Below are positions 13,160 through 54,117 of a DNA stretch of 64,000 nt, one piece after another. The notes under the pieces are model-generated. The model ran no database searches and was not told the origin of the DNA. It was given only the letters and a program-made list of their open reading frames with translations. A program made the position numbers and the translations under genes. This DNA is from a virus. Taxonomy: Duplodnaviria; Caudoviricetes. The number at the start of each line of letters is the position of its first letter. The first letter of the stretch is position 1. The stretch lies in IMG/VR virus record IMGVR_UViG_3300025000_000055. One strand, 5' to 3'.

Positions 13160-16100
13160 TTGGAGAATAACATAAAAGAAATTATCGATCTATTAAGTAA
13201 TAAGGTTTTTGTTATTTCTGATATAATGGAAAGTAAAGAAACCTTTAATGACATATTAGAAACTGTTTATGACTATTTAAAACAAGGTTTCGAAATCAAA
13301 GAATTGAGAACATGTCCAACCTATTTTAAGTTTAAAGAAGAGGGTGAAATCCATGTATTACAATTAAGACATTTTCTTACCAATTTAATGTTTTGGGAAC
13401 CATTAATGAGATTTGATTATTCTGATAAGATAGATGAGACATATATTGTTGATTGTACTAAAATGTCAAGTAAACTAATTAAGAATTATATTGATAATAA
13501 GATAGTTATACCTTATAAAAGAATAATTCCTAATAAGAAAATGAACAAAGTTATTCATGATATGATTTATAATCTATCTAGAATTTCAAGAGATTTTAAT
13601 ATCATATTAGGTTTATCCATGAATCTTGAAACATTTATTGATGTTGCCAAAAGGAACCCAAGATTTAATGAAATTATTAGAACCCAATTGGATGAAGATA
13701 TGCAACCAACTGAAATTGAAGCATATTTAGATAAATTAATGTATGAACAAATGGATATTTTAAAAAATGACGAGGAGGGAAATTTATTAAAACCAATACT
13801 TAAATCAGGTGCTGGTATAAAAAGTAAACAATTGGCGGAGTTTTCAATTTCTTCAGGGTTAAATATTAGCCCCGTATATAGGCGACTATGTGCGTAAACC
13901 TCTTTAATTGCTGGAAAATCTCTCAAACTCTACTATTCTACCAAAAAAATATTAATAAAAGATGGTGTTAATATTGAAATTAGTTAGTGTTGATTACTAT
14001 AAAAAAGAAAGGCAATATACTATTACCTTTTTTAAGAATAAAAATGGATATAAAACAAGAACTAAAAGATTCACTTATTCTGAAAATACCCATGGTCCTT
14101 TTACTAAATTTCTTGCTATGTATACAGCAAAAACAGGTAAGAGATTATACCACTGGTTTGTTACCGATGGTATATATACCTCAGTTTTTATATATAATAA
14201 AACTTATGGTATTAAACGTATGCTAATAGACAATGAATTTATAGATATTGTAAGAAATCATAAAATTAATATAGTAAAAAATAAAACGGGTCAAGATATT
14301 TTTTATGCAATAATAAAAATGAATGGTAGAAATATTCATGTACATCGTCTTATTATGGGTTTAGGAAAATATAATAATGATCCAGTAGATCATATTTTTC
14401 ATGATTCTTTAGACAATAGGAGATTAAATCTACGTATTTGTACACCTAGTATTAATAATAGAAATTCAAGATTACGTGTTGATAATAAAAGTGGTATACA
14501 AGGAGTTTATTTTAGTAAGCATAGAAAAACATATATTGCAGAAGTAAGGGATTTAAATGGTAAAAAAATTAGAAAACACTTTAAAATAAAGCATAATGGT
14601 AGAGAGAAAGCCATTGAATTAGCAAAACAATGGCGTGATGAAATGGTAGAAGAATATTATGAGAGAAAATCAGCAGCGAAGCCTGAATTTCAGGAACGTT
14701 CAACGACTATCAAAAGCATGTTTATTATTAATATAAAAATATAATAAACATAAGCGAGTAGAGTAGGGCTAGAAGCTAATGCTAGTTCGAAACGGGAGGC
14801 ATCTCTATGAGATGATGATATAGTCTATTATCCTAGAGTAATTTAGGGAAGTTCATAAGAGAACTGTATAGGCGTTGCGTCCTATATGAATTAAAAGTAA
14901 AACCGACTCTTAGTGGTAACACTATACCTATACCAATTAATACAAATTATATAGTTGGTGGACTGAGAAATATATCTAATTATTATATTGATTCCCTAAA
15001 CTATATTGGGGCTTCATACAGTGATGTATGTTGAATAACTTCTTTAATTGTCGGGGAAGCTCTTAGAGCTTTTTATTATATAATAAAAAGATTGAGTAAT
15101 CCGCAGCTAAGATTCCTATTAGTTATAGGAATAAAGTTCAACGACTATCCCCCATTGGCTTTGAAATAAGCAATAGGAGTAGGGCTCAAGTGAGTGGGTG
15201 AGAATCCCTTAAATCGAAATAGGAAGCATCTCTATGAGATGAAGATATAGTCTGGTATCCTAATGAAAGTTAGGGAAGTTCATAAGAGAACTGCATAGAT
15301 TAACGACCTATGTGAACTTACGAGGTGGAAGAAAGTCTTTAATTATGAGCAAACTTGAAATGGGTAAATTGAGTTGCCCATGCTTCTTTAATTGTCGGGA
15401 AATCTCTTAGAGCCTAAAACTACCAAATCATAGTAGTGATATTATGGTGGCTTAGTCTAATCAACTAAGGTATGGTAACAAGGTTTTAGGATTGAGTAAT
15501 CCGCAGCTAAGTTATTTTGTTATGTGTGATATTTTTATATAATTAAAAAAATCTAAAAAAGGAGGTGATATAATATGGGAAAAGAAATATGGAATAAAAT
15601 TATTATTGATGATGAAAATACTAAATATAGTATTAGTTCTTATGGAAATATAAGAAATGATATTACAGGATTAATTTTAAAACCATTTAAAAATCATGAT
15701 GACTATCTTGTTATTACATTATACCATAAAGGTAAAAAATATCTTAGAAGAATTAATATTTTAGTGGCTAAAGCTTTTATACCTAATCCTTTAAATAAAC
15801 CTACAGTTAATCATAAAGATGGTATTAAAACTAATAATTATGTTTATAATTTAGAATGGGCTACTTATTCTGAACAAAACATTCATGCATTTAAAATGGG
15901 TTTAATGAAACCAAAAGTTGGAGAACAATCTCATTATAATAAATATCCAGAGACTACAATTCATAAAATATGCAAATTATTAGAAGATGGATATGACCGT
16001 AAGCAAGTATCTGAAAAATTAAATGTACCAAAATCTCTAATAAAACATATTATAGGTGGTGGATCATGGAAACATGTTTCTTCACTATATATAATAGATC

Positions 16101-17713
16101 GTGAAAAGACTAAAACCAAAATATTAACTGGTTCTAAATCATATTATAGTAAATATTCTGAAGAAACTATTCGTGAAATTTGTTATCTATTACAGAAAGG
16201 TAAAAGTAGGAAATATATTAAAAATAAGCTTAATTTACTTAATACGAGGATAATAATAAATATCCAAGAAGGTACAACATGGAAACACATTTCTTCCCAA
16301 TATGTAATAATTTATGTCCCACATCATATCATACACAACAAAATAAAAAGTTCAACGACTATCAAAAACTTATTCACCATTAAAATAAATATTGGTGAAT
16401 AAAGTGAGTAGAGTAGGGCCTAAGTAGGTGGGTGAAATTCCCTTAAATCGAAATAGGAAGCCACCCAAGAGGGTGAAGATATAGTCTGGTACCCTAGTGA
16501 AAACTAGGGAAGTTCATAAAAAGAACTGCGTAGAGTAACGATTTACGTGAACACCAGGAACTCGGGTCATTTTTCGCGTATGGTCATGCTGCTAGTTTCA
16601 AGTATTAATTTATCAAAAACTGTTGAATCATGTAATAGTGTACATCCAATAAAAATTGAATTATCTTCTAAAGAACATTTGATAAGAATGAGAGGTCGAT
16701 ATTATAGAACTATGTATTCTAGAAATTATCAATTGTTAAAAGGAGATGAATATAATTTAATAAATAAAACTATTTTTATTAAATCACCTGCTACATGTGC
16801 ATGTAAAGATGGTATATGTAAAATGTGTTATGGTGACTTATCATATATAAATAAAGATATTACAATAGGTGCATTTGCTGGTACAAAAATTACAGAACCA
16901 GTATCGCAAAATATTTTATCATCTAAACACTTATTAACAACTAAATCACAAAAAATAGAATTCAATGAAGAATTTTATAAGTTTTTTAATATAAGTGGTA
17001 ATGAAATAATTATCAATGCAAGTGAAGAAAATGATGATTTAGATGATTTTAGTTTACTTATAATTAAATCTAATATTAAAACAATTGCTGATTATGATGA
17101 TAATGATATGGAATTTAATGAATATATAAATCTATTTCATGTATATAATAAGAAAACTGGTGAAATGATTGAAATAAAAGAAACTGGGGAAAAAGATTTA
17201 TATATATCACCTGAATTAAGAAAATTATTTAAGAAGAAAAGTAAGAAAGAAGTTTATGAAATTGATTTTAAAACACTTGATGATGACAATAGAATATTTG
17301 TTATTGAAGTAATTAATAATGAGTTAACTAGACCATTATATGATATTATTCGTTTAATCGATAGAGTTGATTATAGAATTATACATTGGGACTGTGTAAC
17401 AATTGACCAAATGTGTCAAAAGATGTTGGATCTATTAATAGAATCAGAGATTAATTCTGATTCTGTTCATGGTGAATTAATTTTAACACCATTGTTAAGG
17501 GATAAAGAAAATATATTAGAAAGACCTAAATTTAATAGATATTTTAATGATGATAGATACCAAATTCTAACAGTTAAAGCTGCTTTAGAAAAACATCCTT
17601 CAGTATTAGTCGGTTTATCATTCCAAGCACTTGATAGACAATTAACAAATCCATTAACATTTAGAAAGAAAGAAAGCTCATTTATTGATCCTTTCTTTAA
17701 AGAAAGACCATAG
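13160..17713 (+). CDS. Non-virion RNA polymerase beta' C-terminal subunit (AR9 gp154-like), spliced from four exons, 665 aa
   Basis: Exons 13160-13859, 14898-14997, 15323-15365 and 16559-17713 join in frame. The product reads SGAGIKSKQ..SGLKPTLSGNTIPIPINTN..YYIDSLGGRKSLIMSKLEMGNSGHFSRM (bridge helix) and has a CAC..ICKMCYG zinc site. Confidence 0.9.
13860..14897 (+). ncRNA. Group I intron 1 of RNAP beta'-C, carrying an endonuclease ORF
   Basis: P1 GGGU|UAAAUAUUAGCCC with a U.G pair; Q AAUCAGCAGC, R GUUCAACGACUA and S GAUAUAGUCU; terminal G at 14897 restores the frame. Confidence 0.88.
13962..14744 (+). CDS. Intron-encoded HNH/AP2 homing endonuclease
   Basis: VHRLIMG..VDHIFHDSLDNRRLNLR (HNH) followed by NKSGIQGVYF..YIAEV (AP2-like). 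Confidence 0.85.
   Translation: MVLILKLVSVDYYKKERQYTITFFKNKNGYKTRTKRFTYSENTHGPFTKFLAMYTAKTGKRLYHWFVTDGIYTSVFIYNKTYGIKRMLIDNEFIDIVRNHKINIVKNKTGQDIFYAIIKMNGRNIHVHRLIMGLGKYNNDPVDHIFHDSLDNRRLNLRICTPSINNRNSRLRVDNKSGIQGVYFSKHRKTYIAEVRDLNGKKIRKHFKIKHNGREKAIELAKQWRDEMVEEYYERKSAAKPEFQERSTTIKSMFIINIKI
14898..14997 (+). CDS. RNAP beta'-C exon 2 (100 nt)
   Basis: Encodes LKPTLSGNTIPIPINTNYIVGGLRNISNYYIDS; missed by the ORF track. Confidence 0.85.
14998..15322 (+). ncRNA. Group I intron 2 of RNAP beta'-C, ORF-less, 325 nt
   Basis: P1 CCCU|...GGGG; core elements AAUCCGCAGC, GUUCAACGACUA and AAGAUAUAGUCU; terminal G at 15322. Confidence 0.88.
15323..15365 (+). CDS. RNAP beta'-C exon 3 (43-nt microexon)
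   Basis: Encodes (L)GGRKSLIMSKLEMG, equivalent to bacterial GARKGLADTALKTA. Confidence 0.85.
15366..16558 (+). ncRNA. Group I intron 3 of RNAP beta'-C, endonuclease ORF in P6
   Basis: P1 UGGGU|...GCCCA; Q, R and S elements present; terminal G at 16558 is followed by AAC TCG GGT (NSG). Confidence 0.88.
15575..16402 (+). CDS. Intron-encoded HNH homing endonuclease (NUMOD4-like N-terminus, two C-terminal repeats)
   Basis: YSISSYGNIRN; VNHKDGIKTNNYVYNLEW; duplicated GxxSxYxKYxExTIxxICxLL..W.HxS units; AAGGAGGTG RBS. Confidence 0.88.
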   Translation: MGKEIWNKIIIDDENTKYSISSYGNIRNDITGLILKPFKNHDDYLVITLYHKGKKYLRRINILVAKAFIPNPLNKPTVNHKDGIKTNNYVYNLEWATYSEQNIHAFKMGLMKPKVGEQSHYNKYPETTIHKICKLLEDGYDRKQVSEKLNVPKSLIKHIIGGGSWKHVSSLYIIDREKTKTKILTGSKSYYSKYSEETIREICYLLQKGKSRKYIKNKLNLLNTRIIINIQEGTTWKHISSQYVIIYVPHHIIHNKIKSSTTIKNLFTIKINIGE

Positions 17714-39785: not shown

Positions 39786-42700
39786 ATGAAAAAACCATAT
39801 ATTTATGATTTGGAAACTAAGAACTTATCTTTCTTACAAACAGCTAAAGATCTACATGTACTTGGTATTAAAAATAATGTATTTTTTTTAAAATTGTATG
39901 ATAAATCTTTAAAGAAAGTTGATCCTCATTCACCATTTTTAACAGATGACCAAATTATAAAAATTATTAATGAATGTATGATTAATCCCTGGTATTTTTT
40001 AAGAGAGGTTGCAAGAATTGCAGATCAAGGCGGGAGGGGTCTTCCATATCAACTTCATAGGGCTAATCTAGCTTCCACATATTGTTATTTAAATGGTATA
40101 GATCATTATGTAGTAATACCAAGACAAAAAGGTAAAACTCAAAGTGAATTAGCTATAATAAATTGGTCATTTCTATTAGGTACAACTAATTCAGAATTTA
40201 TGTTTTTAAGTCTAAGTCAAGCTGGTGCTAATGAAAATCTTGATAGATTGAAAAAACAAAAAGATTTATTACCACATTATTTACAATTTAAAATGATTTT
40301 TTCAGATGATGGTAAAATTATTAAAGAAACTGATAATGTTAAAACTTTAGCTAATGCTATTAATGGTAATAAAATAATAACTAAACCATCTGCTAAATCA
40401 ATAGAAGCCGCCGAGAAGATCGGTAGGGGTTATTTTTAGCTCCCTCATACAGTAATGTATGTTGAATAACTTCTTTAATTGTCGGGGAAGCTCTTAGAGC
40501 CTAAGACTACTAAATTATATTAGTAATAATATAATGGCTTGGACTAATCAACCAAGGTATAGTAATAAGGTTTTAGGATTGAGTAATCCGCAGCTAAGAT
40601 TTTATTAAATGGGTAACAATTTTATAAAAAAATGTATAAAGGTGTTGATAATAAAATGTTTGTCGTAATACCAGTTGAAAGGAAAAAATTTAAACCATTG
40701 ACATTCCCAGAAGTTCAAGAAGGTAGATATATAATCAGTAATTATGGTGATATTATTGATTTAAAAACAGGATTAGAAAAAAAATTAAATATTAATAAGA
40801 AAAAATAATTATATTAGTGCAAAAATTAAAATGGATAATAATAAAACTAAATCAATAGCTGTTCATAGATTAGTAGCTTATGAATTTTGTGATAATTATA
40901 ATGTTAATGATAAAAATAGTCTTAAAAGTTTTAATTATTATGAAAATCTTGAATGGGTTACTTATTCTGAGAATAATAAACATCGTTTTGAGCATGGGAA
41001 TGGAAGTAGTGCTAAACCACCAATACTTAGGGGTGAGAATAATCCTCACAACGTTTACTCTACAGAATTTATAAAGGAAATTTGTTTTTTATTAACTAAA
41101 AGATATACTGTTAAAGAAATACTAGATTATTTTGAATGTATAGAAAATAGGAAAAAAATAATTTCTTTAATTCATGATATACGATGTAGAAGAACATGGG
41201 GACATATTTCTAGAAATTATGATTTTGAAACCCATTTAACAAAATAAAGTTCAACGACTATCCCATTGGTACTGAAATGGTACAATAGGAGTAGGGCTCA
41301 AGTGAGTGGGTGAAATTCCCTTAAATCGAAATAGGAAACTCCATTATACTGATTATATAATGGATGAAGATATAGTCTAGTATCCTAATGAAAGTTAGGG
41401 AAGTTCATAAGAGAACTGCATAGATTAACGACCTATGTGAATATATCGAGTACACAACCTGTGCATTTATACGACGAAGTTGAGTTTACATCCTATATTA
41501 AAACTATCATTGAGGCAGCGGCAATGGCGTTTAAAACAGCTTCTAAAAATGCAAAAAGAAATAATGCCCCTTATTGCCGTTCGTTCCTGAGCACACCTGG
41601 AGATCTCGATACTAAAGCTGGACAAGAATGTATGGATATAATTAGTAAGACATATAGATGGACTGAAAAATTTTATGATATGAATATAGATGATGTTAAA
41701 GAAATTATAATAAATAATTCAGAAAATAGAATAGTTTATATTGAATACGATTATAAACAATTAGGAGAAGGTGAAGAATGGTTTAATGAATCTTGTGCAG
41801 TAATAGGTAATAATCCATTAAAAATTAAGAGAGAATTATTATTACAAAGAATGAGAGGTTCTTCTAATTCTCCATTTGAACCAGAAGATTTAGAACTTAT
41901 TAGAGAAAAACAAGGTAAAATAATTGAAGAAATATTTATTAATAAATTATTTAGATTGGACATATATAAACCTTTAGTAAGAGATAGAATTTATTTTATA
42001 TGTGTTGACGTTTCAAAAGGTTATGGTCAAGATAATTCAGCTGTAGTAATATTAGATCCATATGAACTCAAGCCCGTTGCAGAATTTGAATCACCGTATA
42101 TAGGTGTAACTCAATTAAAGAATTTTTTATATACACTTGTTAAGAAATATTTACCTAGAAGTATTTTATGTATTGAAAGAAATGAGAATGGTGAATCTAT
42201 ATTAGATGGGTTAAGATATACTGATATAATGCATAATTTATATTTTGATAAAGATAAAGACCCTATTGCTTCACAATTAGATGATAGAATGGATAGTCAA
42301 GGATTTTTAAAACAAGAAGCTTTGAAACGTAAATTATATGGTGTATGGACTGGAACTAAATCAAGACAAGTAATGTTTAGTTTATTGGAAACACATATCG
42401 CAGAATATAAAGATAATTTTATTTGTGCAAATATTATTAATGATTTATTTAAATTAGTCATGAAAAAGAATGGTAAGATTGAAGCTGAAAGTGGATTCCA
42501 TGATGATTCTATTATGGCATATTTAATAGGATTATATGTTTATTATCATGGTAATAATCTACATTATTTTGGTTTTGTTAAAGGTGAATTACCTGATGAA
42601 AAAACCCGAAATAAAGGATTATCGACATATGATGAAATAATGGAAGAAATGCCTGATGAAGAAAAACGATTTTTTGATGAGAGTTTTGGTTCTAAGACTA

Positions 42701-51645: not shown

Positions 51646-54117
51646 TTACACTATAATTTTATTAACATAATAATTATTAACATCATTAATATCAATAATT
51701 AGTTTCTTGTTCTTTTTAATATTTAACTTTTCTTTTATAACAGAATCTATTTCTTCTAATTTGGGAAGATTAAAAAAATCATGACCTAAACTATTTAAAT
51801 CACCTATTAACATATTATCTATAAAGATTTTACCTATATCTTCTTTTTTATCTTTATCATCAATATCTTCAATATAATTTGGCAATTCCTTATTATTTTC
51901 TATAATTAATTTACCGATCATGGAATTAGGTTCAATATTAAAACAAATAATAATACTTGGATACATACTGGAAAACGTAATATTCACATAGATCGTTATT
52001 CTATGCAGTTCTCTTATGAACTTCCTTAGCTTTCACTAAGATACTAGACTATATCTTCATCCATTATATAATCGGTATAATGGAGCCTCCTATTTCGATT
52101 TAAGGGATTTTCACCCACCTACTTAGGCCCTACTCCTAATGACCATTTCAGATCCAAAGGGATAGTCGTTGAACTTTATTCCTATAACTAGGAATCTTAG
52201 CTGCGGATTACTCAATCTTTTTATTATAAATAAAAAGCTCTAAGAGCTTCCCCGACAATTAAAGAAGTTATTCAACATACATTACTATATGAGGGAACAA
52301 ATTCATCCATATCAATAACATTGTCAAATATAAATTGACTTTTTTTACCTAAAATTTCAATACCAACATGAGAATTTAATAATGGGTTGGCAACTAAAGC
52401 TCCTGCAAATTTTTCATCTTCATCATCTTCGTTATTCTTGATTGTTTCTACACCATACTGAATATTAATGTTATTAGCTATTATTAACCCTTGCTTATAA
52501 AATTCTATATATGCACGATTTTTTAAAAACGTTAAGTTCACATAGATCATTAGTCTATGCAGTTCTCTTATGAACTTCCCTAAGCTTTCCTTAGGATACC
52601 AGACTATATCATCATCTCATAGAGATGCTTCCTATTTCGATTTAAGGGATTCTCACCCACCTACTTAGGCCCTACTCCTAATGACCATTTCAGATCCAAA
52701 GGGATAGTCGTTGAACTTTATTCCTATAACTAGGAATCTTAGCTGCGGATTACTCAATCTTTTTATTATAAATAAAAAGCTCTAAGAGCTTCCCCGACAA
52801 TTAAAGAAGTTTACAATACATATTACTATGTAAAGGGTCTAATTATTAAACCGTTTGTCTAAATACTTTTTTATAAGTTGTAGCATTAGTATATGAACGT
52901 TGATATACATTATCAATATCATTAACTTTTCTTTCAATACCTAATTGAAGTAAGACGTCTTTAATATTATACATAACAAATTTTTTATAATTTCTATATG
53001 GTAAAGTTTTAATATTACCATCTTCACTATAATCTAATTTAGTATCACTAATTTCTTTTTCTGCAACATAAGTAAGAGCATTAGAACGTAATTCCGAAGC
53101 TCCTTTTCTTAAAGCACTGTATACTATCATTTGATCTAAAAAAACTGTATAAGATGATATTTTAAAATAATCACCTTTATTTGCTACTTTAAAATTTCTC
53201 ATATCTTTTACAAACATTAATTCTTTTATATTAAAATCAGGATGACACATTATTTCTTTTGGATCTAAATTTAACTCTTTCATACGAGCTATTAAATATG
53301 GGACATCAAATCCGATATTCCAAATCATTAAGAAATCACGTTTAAGAGTATTTATTAATTTAAATGTATCTATCAACATTTCACTTTCATCTTCATACAT
53401 ATAAATATTATATTTTAATACCCCATATGATTCATCAAATACTTTATGAAGCTCTTCTACAAAATTATCTATATCTTTTTTAAACTTTTCTATTTGAGGA
53501 TTATTTTCATTTTCTAAAAGAAAAGTAAAACATGTGTTACTAGTTTCATCAATTAAAGTAATTGCATTAACTGGACATTCACCATCTTTAGGAAATCCAA
53601 TTACTTCTATTGAATCAACTTCAATATCAAGATATGTCTTAGTTATAGGTTTAGGTTTATCATTATGATAATTTAATAACCATTGTATTCTATACCAATT
53701 TTCAATATTATAATCTGAACCAAATACATATCTATATTTATGCAAATTATTAATAGCATACCTATTTCTAGTTTCCAACTTTTGTTTAATATAAGTTAAA
53801 TATTCTTCACCTGCTTGTTTAGCTATATAAAAAGGTAAATCTTTATATTTAGTTCGGTGACACTCAGTTTCACTTAAAGGACTAAATGATTTATTATGTT
53901 GAAAATTTCTAAATTCTTCTTTTGTAAAATAAATATCCATCTCAGGTTCATCTATAGTTAATATGTGTTTTTCACCAGTATTTAAATCTTTATAAATAAT
54001 ATCGAGACTATCTTTATACTTTCTTTCTTTATTAGGAAAATGGTAAATTGTTTCTAAAAACATTATGTTATCACTTTTCATCTTTCCAAGAAACTTCATT
54101 CTATAAATCACCACCAA
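51646..54117 (-). CDS. Family B DNA polymerase, N-terminal subunit (3'-5' exonuclease + motif A; phiKZ gp82-like), spliced from three exons, about 607 aa
   Basis: Exons 54117-52849, 52529-52305 and 51975-51646. ExoI LDIEVD, ExoII WNIGFD, ExoIII YNIKD; the junction IDMD|FSSMYPSII rebuilds motif A. Confidence 0.88.
51976..52304 (-). ncRNA. Group I intron 2 of DNA polymerase, ORF-less, 329 nt
   Basis: P1 GGAU|...GUUC; core almost identical to the neighbouring intron; terminal G at 51976. Confidence 0.88.
52530..52848 (-). ncRNA. Group I intron 1 of DNA polymerase, ORF-less, 319 nt
   Basis: P1 GGUU|UAAUAAUUAGACC; terminal G at 52530; junction FRQTV|FLKNRAY is in frame. Confidence 0.88.

Follow-up and report, generated by a model that had tools for sequence, protein, structure and literature searches.

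Homing and reverse splicing are usually taken to move group I introns as whole units, but is the intron always the unit of exchange? Domains are said, after work by Bryk and Belfort in 1990, to shuffle spontaneously between the introns of phage T4, and Landthaler and Shub reportedly described, in 1999, three related IA2 introns, with exon skipping, in orf142 of the Staphylococcus phage Twort, in which, as far as we know, neither module-level mosaicism nor concerted evolution has been reported. The stretch of viral DNA considered here (IMG/VR record IMGVR_UViG_3300025000_000055; called the window, by which its whole length of 64 kb is meant) carries seven paralogous IA-type group I introns, to judge from their sequences functional-looking ribozymes, and the focus is on the two that interrupt its family B polymerase gene. 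The pattern they present probably results from gene conversion that has recurred, by way of the conserved ribozyme core, among the paralogues of one genome and also among alleles when strains co-infect.

That the T4 td, nrdB and sunY/nrdD group I introns recombine with each other was reported by Hall, Liu & Shub (1989, Nature 340:574). The yeast mitochondrial 21S rRNA omega intron and its homing endonuclease gene (HEG) are a mosaic, chimeric along its length, with a significant pairwise homoplasy index (PHI), and gene conversion is the explanation given (Wu & Hao 2014, PMC4059233). Jug jumbo phages have 18.5 group I introns per genome (PMC12880540). The window, at 25% G+C, is that of an AR9/PBS1-like jumbo phage, its proteins being ~30-33% identical in amino acids (aa) to those of the Bacillus jumbo phages AR9 and PBS1, and the public runs holding its sequence are groundwater metagenomes from a single study, all of them of DNA. 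It was compared with two sister phages from IMG/VR, S1 (IMGVR_UViG_3300025000_000053, a 249,853-bp contig) and S2, all the compared genomes being metagenome assemblies. For the protein of polymerase exon 1, identity to the window is 92% in S1 and 88% in S2, and the DNA of the polymerase exons is 87-90% identical between window and sisters, with exon 2 at 89-90%.

The polymerase introns and their shared block

The features involved are the following, where ORF is open reading frame, RF00028 is an Rfam model and a letter in brackets is the handle of an intron.

52530..52848, minus strand: polymerase intron 1 (G), 319 nt, without ORF, short P5, P8 = CATCTCTATGAGATG; RF00028 81.1 bits
52305..52529, minus strand: polymerase exon 2, 225 nt, 75 codons, between both polymerase introns
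51976..52304, minus strand: polymerase intron 2 (F), 329 nt, without ORF, short P5, P8 = CCATTATACCGATTATATAATGG; RF00028 67.9 bits
52088..52269, minus strand: near-identical block of intron 2, running from J2/3-P3 through P4, P5, P6, P7, P7.1 and P7.2 to P3', identical over 52111-52269
52630..52811, minus strand: matching block of intron 1, identical over 52653-52811
52613..52627, minus strand: P8 hairpin of intron 1, with the same sequence as in beta' introns 1 and 2; the sister phages have a different P8 here
52061..52083, minus strand: P8 hairpin of intron 2, also present in the terminase intron and in the S2 orthologue at site 2

A first-pass annotation of the window had pointed to an identical block of about 140 nt in the two polymerase introns, with differences at P1 and P8. 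The span that it gave, 51976-52848, reaches from the final base of polymerase intron 2 to the initial base of polymerase intron 1. The block is even longer: exact identity runs for 159 nt (52111-52269 = 52653-52811), and over 182 nt (52088-52269 / 52630-52811) there is one mismatch, T at 52110 and C at 52652, corresponding positions being 542 bp apart. Outside it 47 of 151 aligned columns differ, and these are located in P1 and P8, as had been said, and also in P2, P9 and P9.2. When the positions of the differences were shuffled 100,000 times, an identical run so long never arose (P<1e-5; Fisher 2e-17).

Could such a block have stayed identical with no exchange at all, by purifying or convergent selection on the ribozyme? 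Core helices P3, P4 and P7 are indeed invariant in all copies, but the block also holds loops and hairpins that vary freely in other copies and in orthologues (the L5 indel, P6, P7.1 and P7.2), and the explanation is scarcely credible. Within the block introns F and G share private states, a deletion of 1 nt from L5 and a P6 hairpin of their own, that are in no other copy, and it spans the P7.1 and P7.2 hairpins, which are variable among the other introns. By these states the block is not merely invariant core.

The sister phages allow each of the two insertion sites to be followed separately:

Window: site 1, intron with short P5, without ORF; site 2, intron with short P5, without ORF
S1: site 1, intron with long P5 and a 746-nt P6 insert; site 2, none
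S2: site 1, intron with short P5, without ORF; site 2, intron with a 484-nt P6 insert
Relatives at 63% and 45% identity, and AR9: site 1, none; site 2, none

In the quartet made up of the polymerase introns of window and S2, the informative sites fall into two classes that occupy separate regions: 20 unite introns of the same insertion site and are confined to P1 and to the part from P8 onwards, as far as the 3' end, while 6 unite introns of the same genome (the L5 indel, four positions in P7.2 and one in P9.2). The third topology has no supporting site. Since the exons of window and sisters are only 87-90% identical, the block, at 99.5%, is much younger than the split of the strains. Window intron 2 has the P7.1 hairpin of the site-1 orthologues, the S2 orthologue having another P7.1, which makes transfer from intron 1 into intron 2 the probable direction. 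The two polymerase introns of S2 share P2-P5 (~105 nt with 3 differences) and differ in P6, P7.1 and P8, a tract that, going by these sequences, represents a second, independent homogenisation of the same intron pair. The site-1 introns of S1 and S2 have related P8 hairpins and window intron 1 has one of the beta'-intron type, so that the latter intron appears also to have swapped its P8.

Alternatively, might one polymerase intron be a fresh copy, placed by reverse splicing or ectopic homing, that later diverged at P1, P2, P8 and P9 without conversion? The family has spread to many sites with re-matched guide sequences, and the two introns are adjacent. However, P1, P8, P9.2 and the 3' tail of intron 2 are common to its S2 site-2 orthologue while its central block is 99.5% identical to that of intron 1, and because of that match intron 2 is older than the exon divergence of about 10-12%. 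Furthermore, the two introns differ by entire hairpins, not by point mutations, and the alternative forms are found again in other copies. Recent transposition is, in our judgement of these points, very unlikely. As explanations of the block, both it and convergent selection were rejected by the orthologue comparison.

An intron-less allele of site 2 is present in contigs of both groundwater samples (joint 51967->52305), at depths of 26 and 11 vs exon depths of ~30 and ~12, and its junction (TTTTCTGC) is that of S1. Strains with and without the intron therefore coexist, at similar depth.

Modules across the intron family

The complete sister genome has ~18 intron copies, and eight modules were typed in 28 copies (window 7, S1 17, S2 4). 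Four-gamete violation is found for 24 of the 28 module pairs. Within the window an example is P7.2, with variants x and y, against P8, with variants a and b: beta' intron 2 (B) is x/a, the terminase intron (D) x/b, G y/a and F y/b. PHI, in our own implementation, gives P=0.0005 at a scale of 50 nt for the six alignable window copies and P<=0.0005 at both 50 and 100 nt for a larger set of 22. Maximum likelihood (ML) trees of P2-P6, P7-P3' and P8-P9.2 are each rejected by the data of the other partitions in all six cross-tests (delta-lnL 112-332; approximately unbiased (AU) test, p-AU <=2e-5). The possibility that all helices follow one congruent tree, raised at the first pass as what would speak against module shuffling, thus fails by the AU, PHI and four-gamete tests alike.

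The distribution of P8 and P5 variants was described correctly by the first-pass annotation, to the letter. CATCTCTATGAGATG occurs exactly three times in the window (14800, 15227 and, on the minus strand, 52613; 0 expected by chance), in beta' introns 1 and 2 and polymerase intron 1, and CCATTATACNGATTATATAATGG exactly twice (41341 and, on the minus strand, 52061; again 0 expected), in the terminase intron and polymerase intron 2; the P8 of intron 1 reads CATCTC... and that of intron 2 CCATTATACC... A long P5 (94-96 nt) is found in beta' intron 3 and the terminase and portal introns, and a short one (39-40 nt, 98-100% alike) in beta' intron 2 and both polymerase introns; what can be added is that beta' intron 1 has an endonuclease gene inside its P5.

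Does all this involve copying between sites, or could co-infecting strains have recombined only at the same locus, or homing have replaced whole introns, with no copying from site to site? Intron presence and absence, and P6 cargo, do vary between strains at the same site, intron-plus and intron-minus alleles are in one sample, and many modules are common to different genomes. However, identical modules at different sites must once have crossed sites, and it is within genomes that the longest identical runs and an excess of sharing of variable modules are found. The two longest exact runs, 168 nt between the polymerase intron of S1 and another copy at a distance of 34 kb, and the 159 nt in the window, are both within a genome, the longest between orthologues being 96 nt; P2, P6, P7.1 and P8 are shared (with at most 1 difference) in 21 of 349 same-genome paralogue pairs vs 10 of 798 cross-genome pairs. 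The private derived states of F and G, absent from other copies, are also hard to accommodate, and a purely allelic origin is quite unlikely. For a window module its own orthologue is the sole nearest in just 8 of 39 comparisons and tied nearest in 5 more. The y variant of P7.2 is in four window introns, and for the three of these with S1 and S2 orthologues, those orthologues carry x. Such comparisons show concerted evolution, with exchange occurring within genomes and not solely between strains.

How might conversion work in such a family? The catalytic core (P3, P4, P6', P7 and J8/7) is nearly invariant in DNA, and the edges of the tracts lie in or beside conserved core segments, with flanks and gene order intact. 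The private P1 guide and 3' tail would bind each intron copy to its own exon, while core stretches of 20-35 nt would provide the homology for non-reciprocal homologous recombination between copies, so that the peripheral hairpins (P2, the P5 extension, the P6 loop or cargo, P7.1, P7.2, P8 and P9) could act as exchangeable cassettes. In the window phage a recent tract of at least 160-182 nt would have been copied between the polymerase introns, P1, P2, P8, P9 and the 3' tail being unaffected. The initiating breaks might come from intron-encoded HNH nucleases or from replication-coupled recombination. Some of the shuffling may have been allelic, with co-infecting strains as the partners instead of copies within one genome, and co-infection is plausible given the coexisting intron-less site-2 allele. 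A bolder proposal, which we put forward tentatively and with more doubt than belief, is that the ribozyme core could be a universal recombination linker, by which a phage-wide network of ~20 introns would evolve in concert and peripheral helices and loop cargo would circulate between unrelated essential genes, with selection keeping P1, P2, P8 and P9 of neighbouring introns different and so avoiding exon skipping and lethal direct-repeat deletions.

While gene conversion among dispersed copies, as proposed at the first pass, is borne out by module incongruence, PHI, AU, the sister-phage orthologues and two independent tracts, the accompanying suggestion that such repeats could drive genome rearrangement found no support. 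Window and S1 are colinear across the 64 kb, and the k=31 contigs of the public runs show no reliable joint, whether of a deletion or an inversion, whose breakpoints lie in introns, nor a register-keeping 542-bp deletion. Two joints, 52174->52560 and 52616->52790, were considered as deletions, but with sides of 20-21 nt and out of register they were treated as cross-matches to other copies. It is only by analogy with T4 that intron-driven genome rearrangement is plausible.

With so many similar copies, assembly itself has to be suspected: wrong branches threaded through a repeat graph of ~20 intron copies in several strains would give false mosaics and a false identical block. Summed contig depth is 250-780 in the introns vs ~30 in the exons, unitigs end at intron edges, and the 159-nt identical run may exceed the read length of the 2014 runs. 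Two assemblies, G001 and G003, are identical over tens of kb except for one intron-internal patch. A pattern search for the window's polymerase intron 2 in IMG/VR viral contigs and JGI metagenome contigs gave no match, not even the window's own contig. Against this, the conserved linkers between variable modules are mostly 22-33 nt, shorter than reads, and adjacent modules are therefore linked inside single reads. The order exon 1, intron, exon 2, intron, exon 3 yields an intact polymerase, and a private P8 base of intron 2 is at the single-copy depth of ~30 in run X1. Independent assemblies from two samples are 100% identical at the polymerase loci of S1 and S2, where mosaics of this sort are seen too, and at most other intron loci, and collapse merges only sequences that are already near-identical. 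An artefact is, on balance, unlikely.

There are, nevertheless, several points that weigh against gene conversion as read here. The run data are k=31 contigs, which are unable to bridge the 159-nt repeat. G001 (83,044-83,105) and L107, contigs of the same strain (S1) from two samples that are 100% identical over most loci, differ in one ~60-nt intron patch (P7.2, P3' and P8, with an 8-nt gap in P7.2), and this is either fresh conversion or the assembler's choice of path. The direction of transfer in the polymerase pair is drawn from just two or three orthologues. For the six window copies PHI is not significant at the 100-nt scale (P=0.14-0.24), a null that fits very short tracts. Stem covariation, rate heterogeneity and use of a partition's own ML tree can inflate PHI and AU; the four-gamete module test, based on whole-hairpin states that would hardly arise twice, is free of these weaknesses. 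Finally, a recombinase was not found, a RecA (PF00154) profile search of S1 being blank, though the gene may be split or divergent.

If gene conversion is the correct reading, what follows from it? With sister genomes as controls, pieces of a ribozyme are seen to move independently and repeatedly between sites, much faster than strains diverge, and for viruses rich in introns, phylogenies built on alignments of whole introns will be misleading. The family is also a natural data set on the combinations of helices that an IA ribozyme tolerates, and it forms a web of recombination substrates connecting the essential genes of jumbo phages. The family's P7...J8/7 motif pair is in >93 IMG/VR contigs among the matches listed, several having 2-4 copies in a few kb.

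Splice sites, domain content and cargo

The introns outside the polymerase gene are as follows.

13860..14897, plus strand: beta' intron 1 (A), a divergent member, with an HNH/AP2 endonuclease ORF (13962-14744) within P5; its splicing is colinear with AR9 g154
14998..15322, plus strand: beta' intron 2 (B), 325 nt, short P5; Rfam 84.5 bits; junction ...YYIDSL|GGRKSLI aligned to AR9
15366..16558, plus strand: beta' intron 3 (C), long P5, without P2, with an intact HNH (NUMOD4) ORF (15575-16402) in P6
40431..41448, plus strand: terminase large subunit intron (D), long P5, with a broken HNH ORF (40632-40808, 40831-41247) in P6
48745..49142, minus strand: portal intron (E), 398 nt, long P5, without ORF; Rfam 67.3 bits; exon aligned to the AR9 portal protein

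The core motifs GTTCAACGACTAT, GATATAGTCT and GAAGTTCATAA have exactly seven occurrences. Scored singly, four of the introns match RF00028 over its full length above the gathering threshold of 50 bits (G 81.1, F 67.9, B 84.5 and E 67.3). However, Rfam scans of the whole window, in both gathering and E-value modes, and of a 3-kb stretch reported no intron, and these same introns appear, at 67-85 bits, only when 0.4-1.9 kb is scanned. The speed filters of Rfam cmscan appear to fail on DNA of 25% GC, and standard Rfam scans of AT-rich phage contigs can overlook every intron.

Splice sites were placed after the U of the P1 U.G pair (5') and after the terminal G (3'), and were verified by in-silico splicing. 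A U.G wobble in P1, with the intron's own guide, and the terminal G (omega G) can be read from the sequence in all seven; in polymerase intron 1, for instance, the U.G pair comes after ...ACGGTT and the final base is G. The spliced polymerase (exons 54117-52849, 52529-52305 and 51975-51646) is a 607-aa family B polymerase that is colinear with AR9 g132 and gap-free at both junctions. Intron 2 interrupts polymerase motif A, ...VIDMD|FSSMYPSII, in ungapped alignment to AR9 ...CIDFDLSSLYPSII. Spliced beta' is colinear with AR9 g154 over its three junctions. For terminase and portal, excision restores open frames, these two junctions being judged by frame, and both terminase exons match TerL PHROGs. 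The local order of split family B polymerase, an intervening ORF and portal is common to the window and AR9/PBS1; the intervening ORF is a DnaQ-like exonuclease in AR9, and for that of the window family searches gave no match.

Several aspects of exon layout stand out. Polymerase exon 2, at 225 nt, is a multiple of three and is flanked by introns with identical cores, and a splice that used the 5' site of the first and the 3' site of the second, with exon 2 skipped, would keep the frame. The beta' exons between its three introns are only 100 nt (14898-14997) and 43 nt (15323-15365), the latter (GGRKSLIMSKLEMG, followed by NSGHFSR...) being, as we take it from knowledge of bacterial beta', the start of the bridge helix.

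As to cargo, intact HNH nucleases are encoded by two of the introns, beta' introns 1 and 3. In the former the endonuclease ORF is in P5, not P6, and the reading frame continues through P4', P6 and P7 into P7.1; in the latter the P6 HNH ORF likewise extends through P7 into P7.1. The HNH gene of the terminase intron is split into ORFs of 58 aa and 138 aa, and the orthologous introns of S1 and S2 are without any insert. P6 cargo is likewise not constant among orthologues of the portal intron, of either polymerase intron or of beta' intron 2. There are two S1 versions of the beta' gene, one with an intron only at the intron-2 site and the other only at the intron-1 site. The ends of the S1 contig, which is labelled '100% complete', are diverged duplicates (1-21,000 vs 228,000-249,853, at 82-89% identity), and it looks like a wrap-around assembly that switched strain.

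RNAalifold on the 3' half recovers P7, P7.1, P7.2, P9, P9.1 and P9.2, with 11 of 36 consensus pairs varying on both sides, i.e., compensatory. With 22 copies, hairpins are predicted in the interval from P7 to P3', with compensatory change at four pairs, which fits the P7.1/P7.2 of subgroup IA (IA2-like). All 20 P8 variants fold as hairpins. By this covariation the intron RNAs are, it seems clear, under structural selection. Nearly all P2 variants are hairpins, most with a GNRA-type tetraloop, and P9 ends in GAAA; if the P2 and P9 loops find their receptors in P8 and P5, as is the case for other group I introns, compatibility of tertiary contacts would filter module swaps.

Comparison with known intron systems

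The closest cultured relatives of the window phage are AR9 and PBS1 (Takahashivirus), which like it have a multisubunit RNA polymerase beta', but AR9 g132 and g154 are uninterrupted at all five of the sites that hold introns in the window. A megablast search with the polymerase locus gave short, partial matches (1-8% of the query, 76-87% identity) in the Staphylococcus phages PALS_2, MarsHill and RQ1, and the jumbo phages PALS_2 and MarsHill thus have related pieces of intron. Twort offers a likeness in having several close, related IA2-type introns within one essential phage gene. The Jug phages are alike in the setting, with ~20 group I introns in a huge phage, where they interrupt essential genes, terL and polymerase among them; the Jug study, however, counts introns and validates splicing, and has no analysis of exchange among them.

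The omega mosaics resemble the present case in chimeric group I introns, significant PHI and the uncoupling of HEG presence or absence from the intron. There, however, it is alleles of a single site that exchange sequence, once horizontal transfer has taken place, whereas in the window phage exchange is also between the insertion sites of one genome. The mechanism proposed here is that of T4, in which dispersed related group I introns in one phage recombine via a short conserved core, giving chimeric introns, but the T4 events were selected in the laboratory, concern three introns and are deletions or exon shuffling. In the window phage we have a natural footprint among ~7-18 copies that is non-reciprocal, with flanks and gene order intact, orthologues as controls and no rearrangement seen. 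Because T4 intron recombination, omega mosaics and jumbo phages with ~18 introns are already published, this is not a new kind of system; it is a new and unusually well-controlled natural example of a known process.

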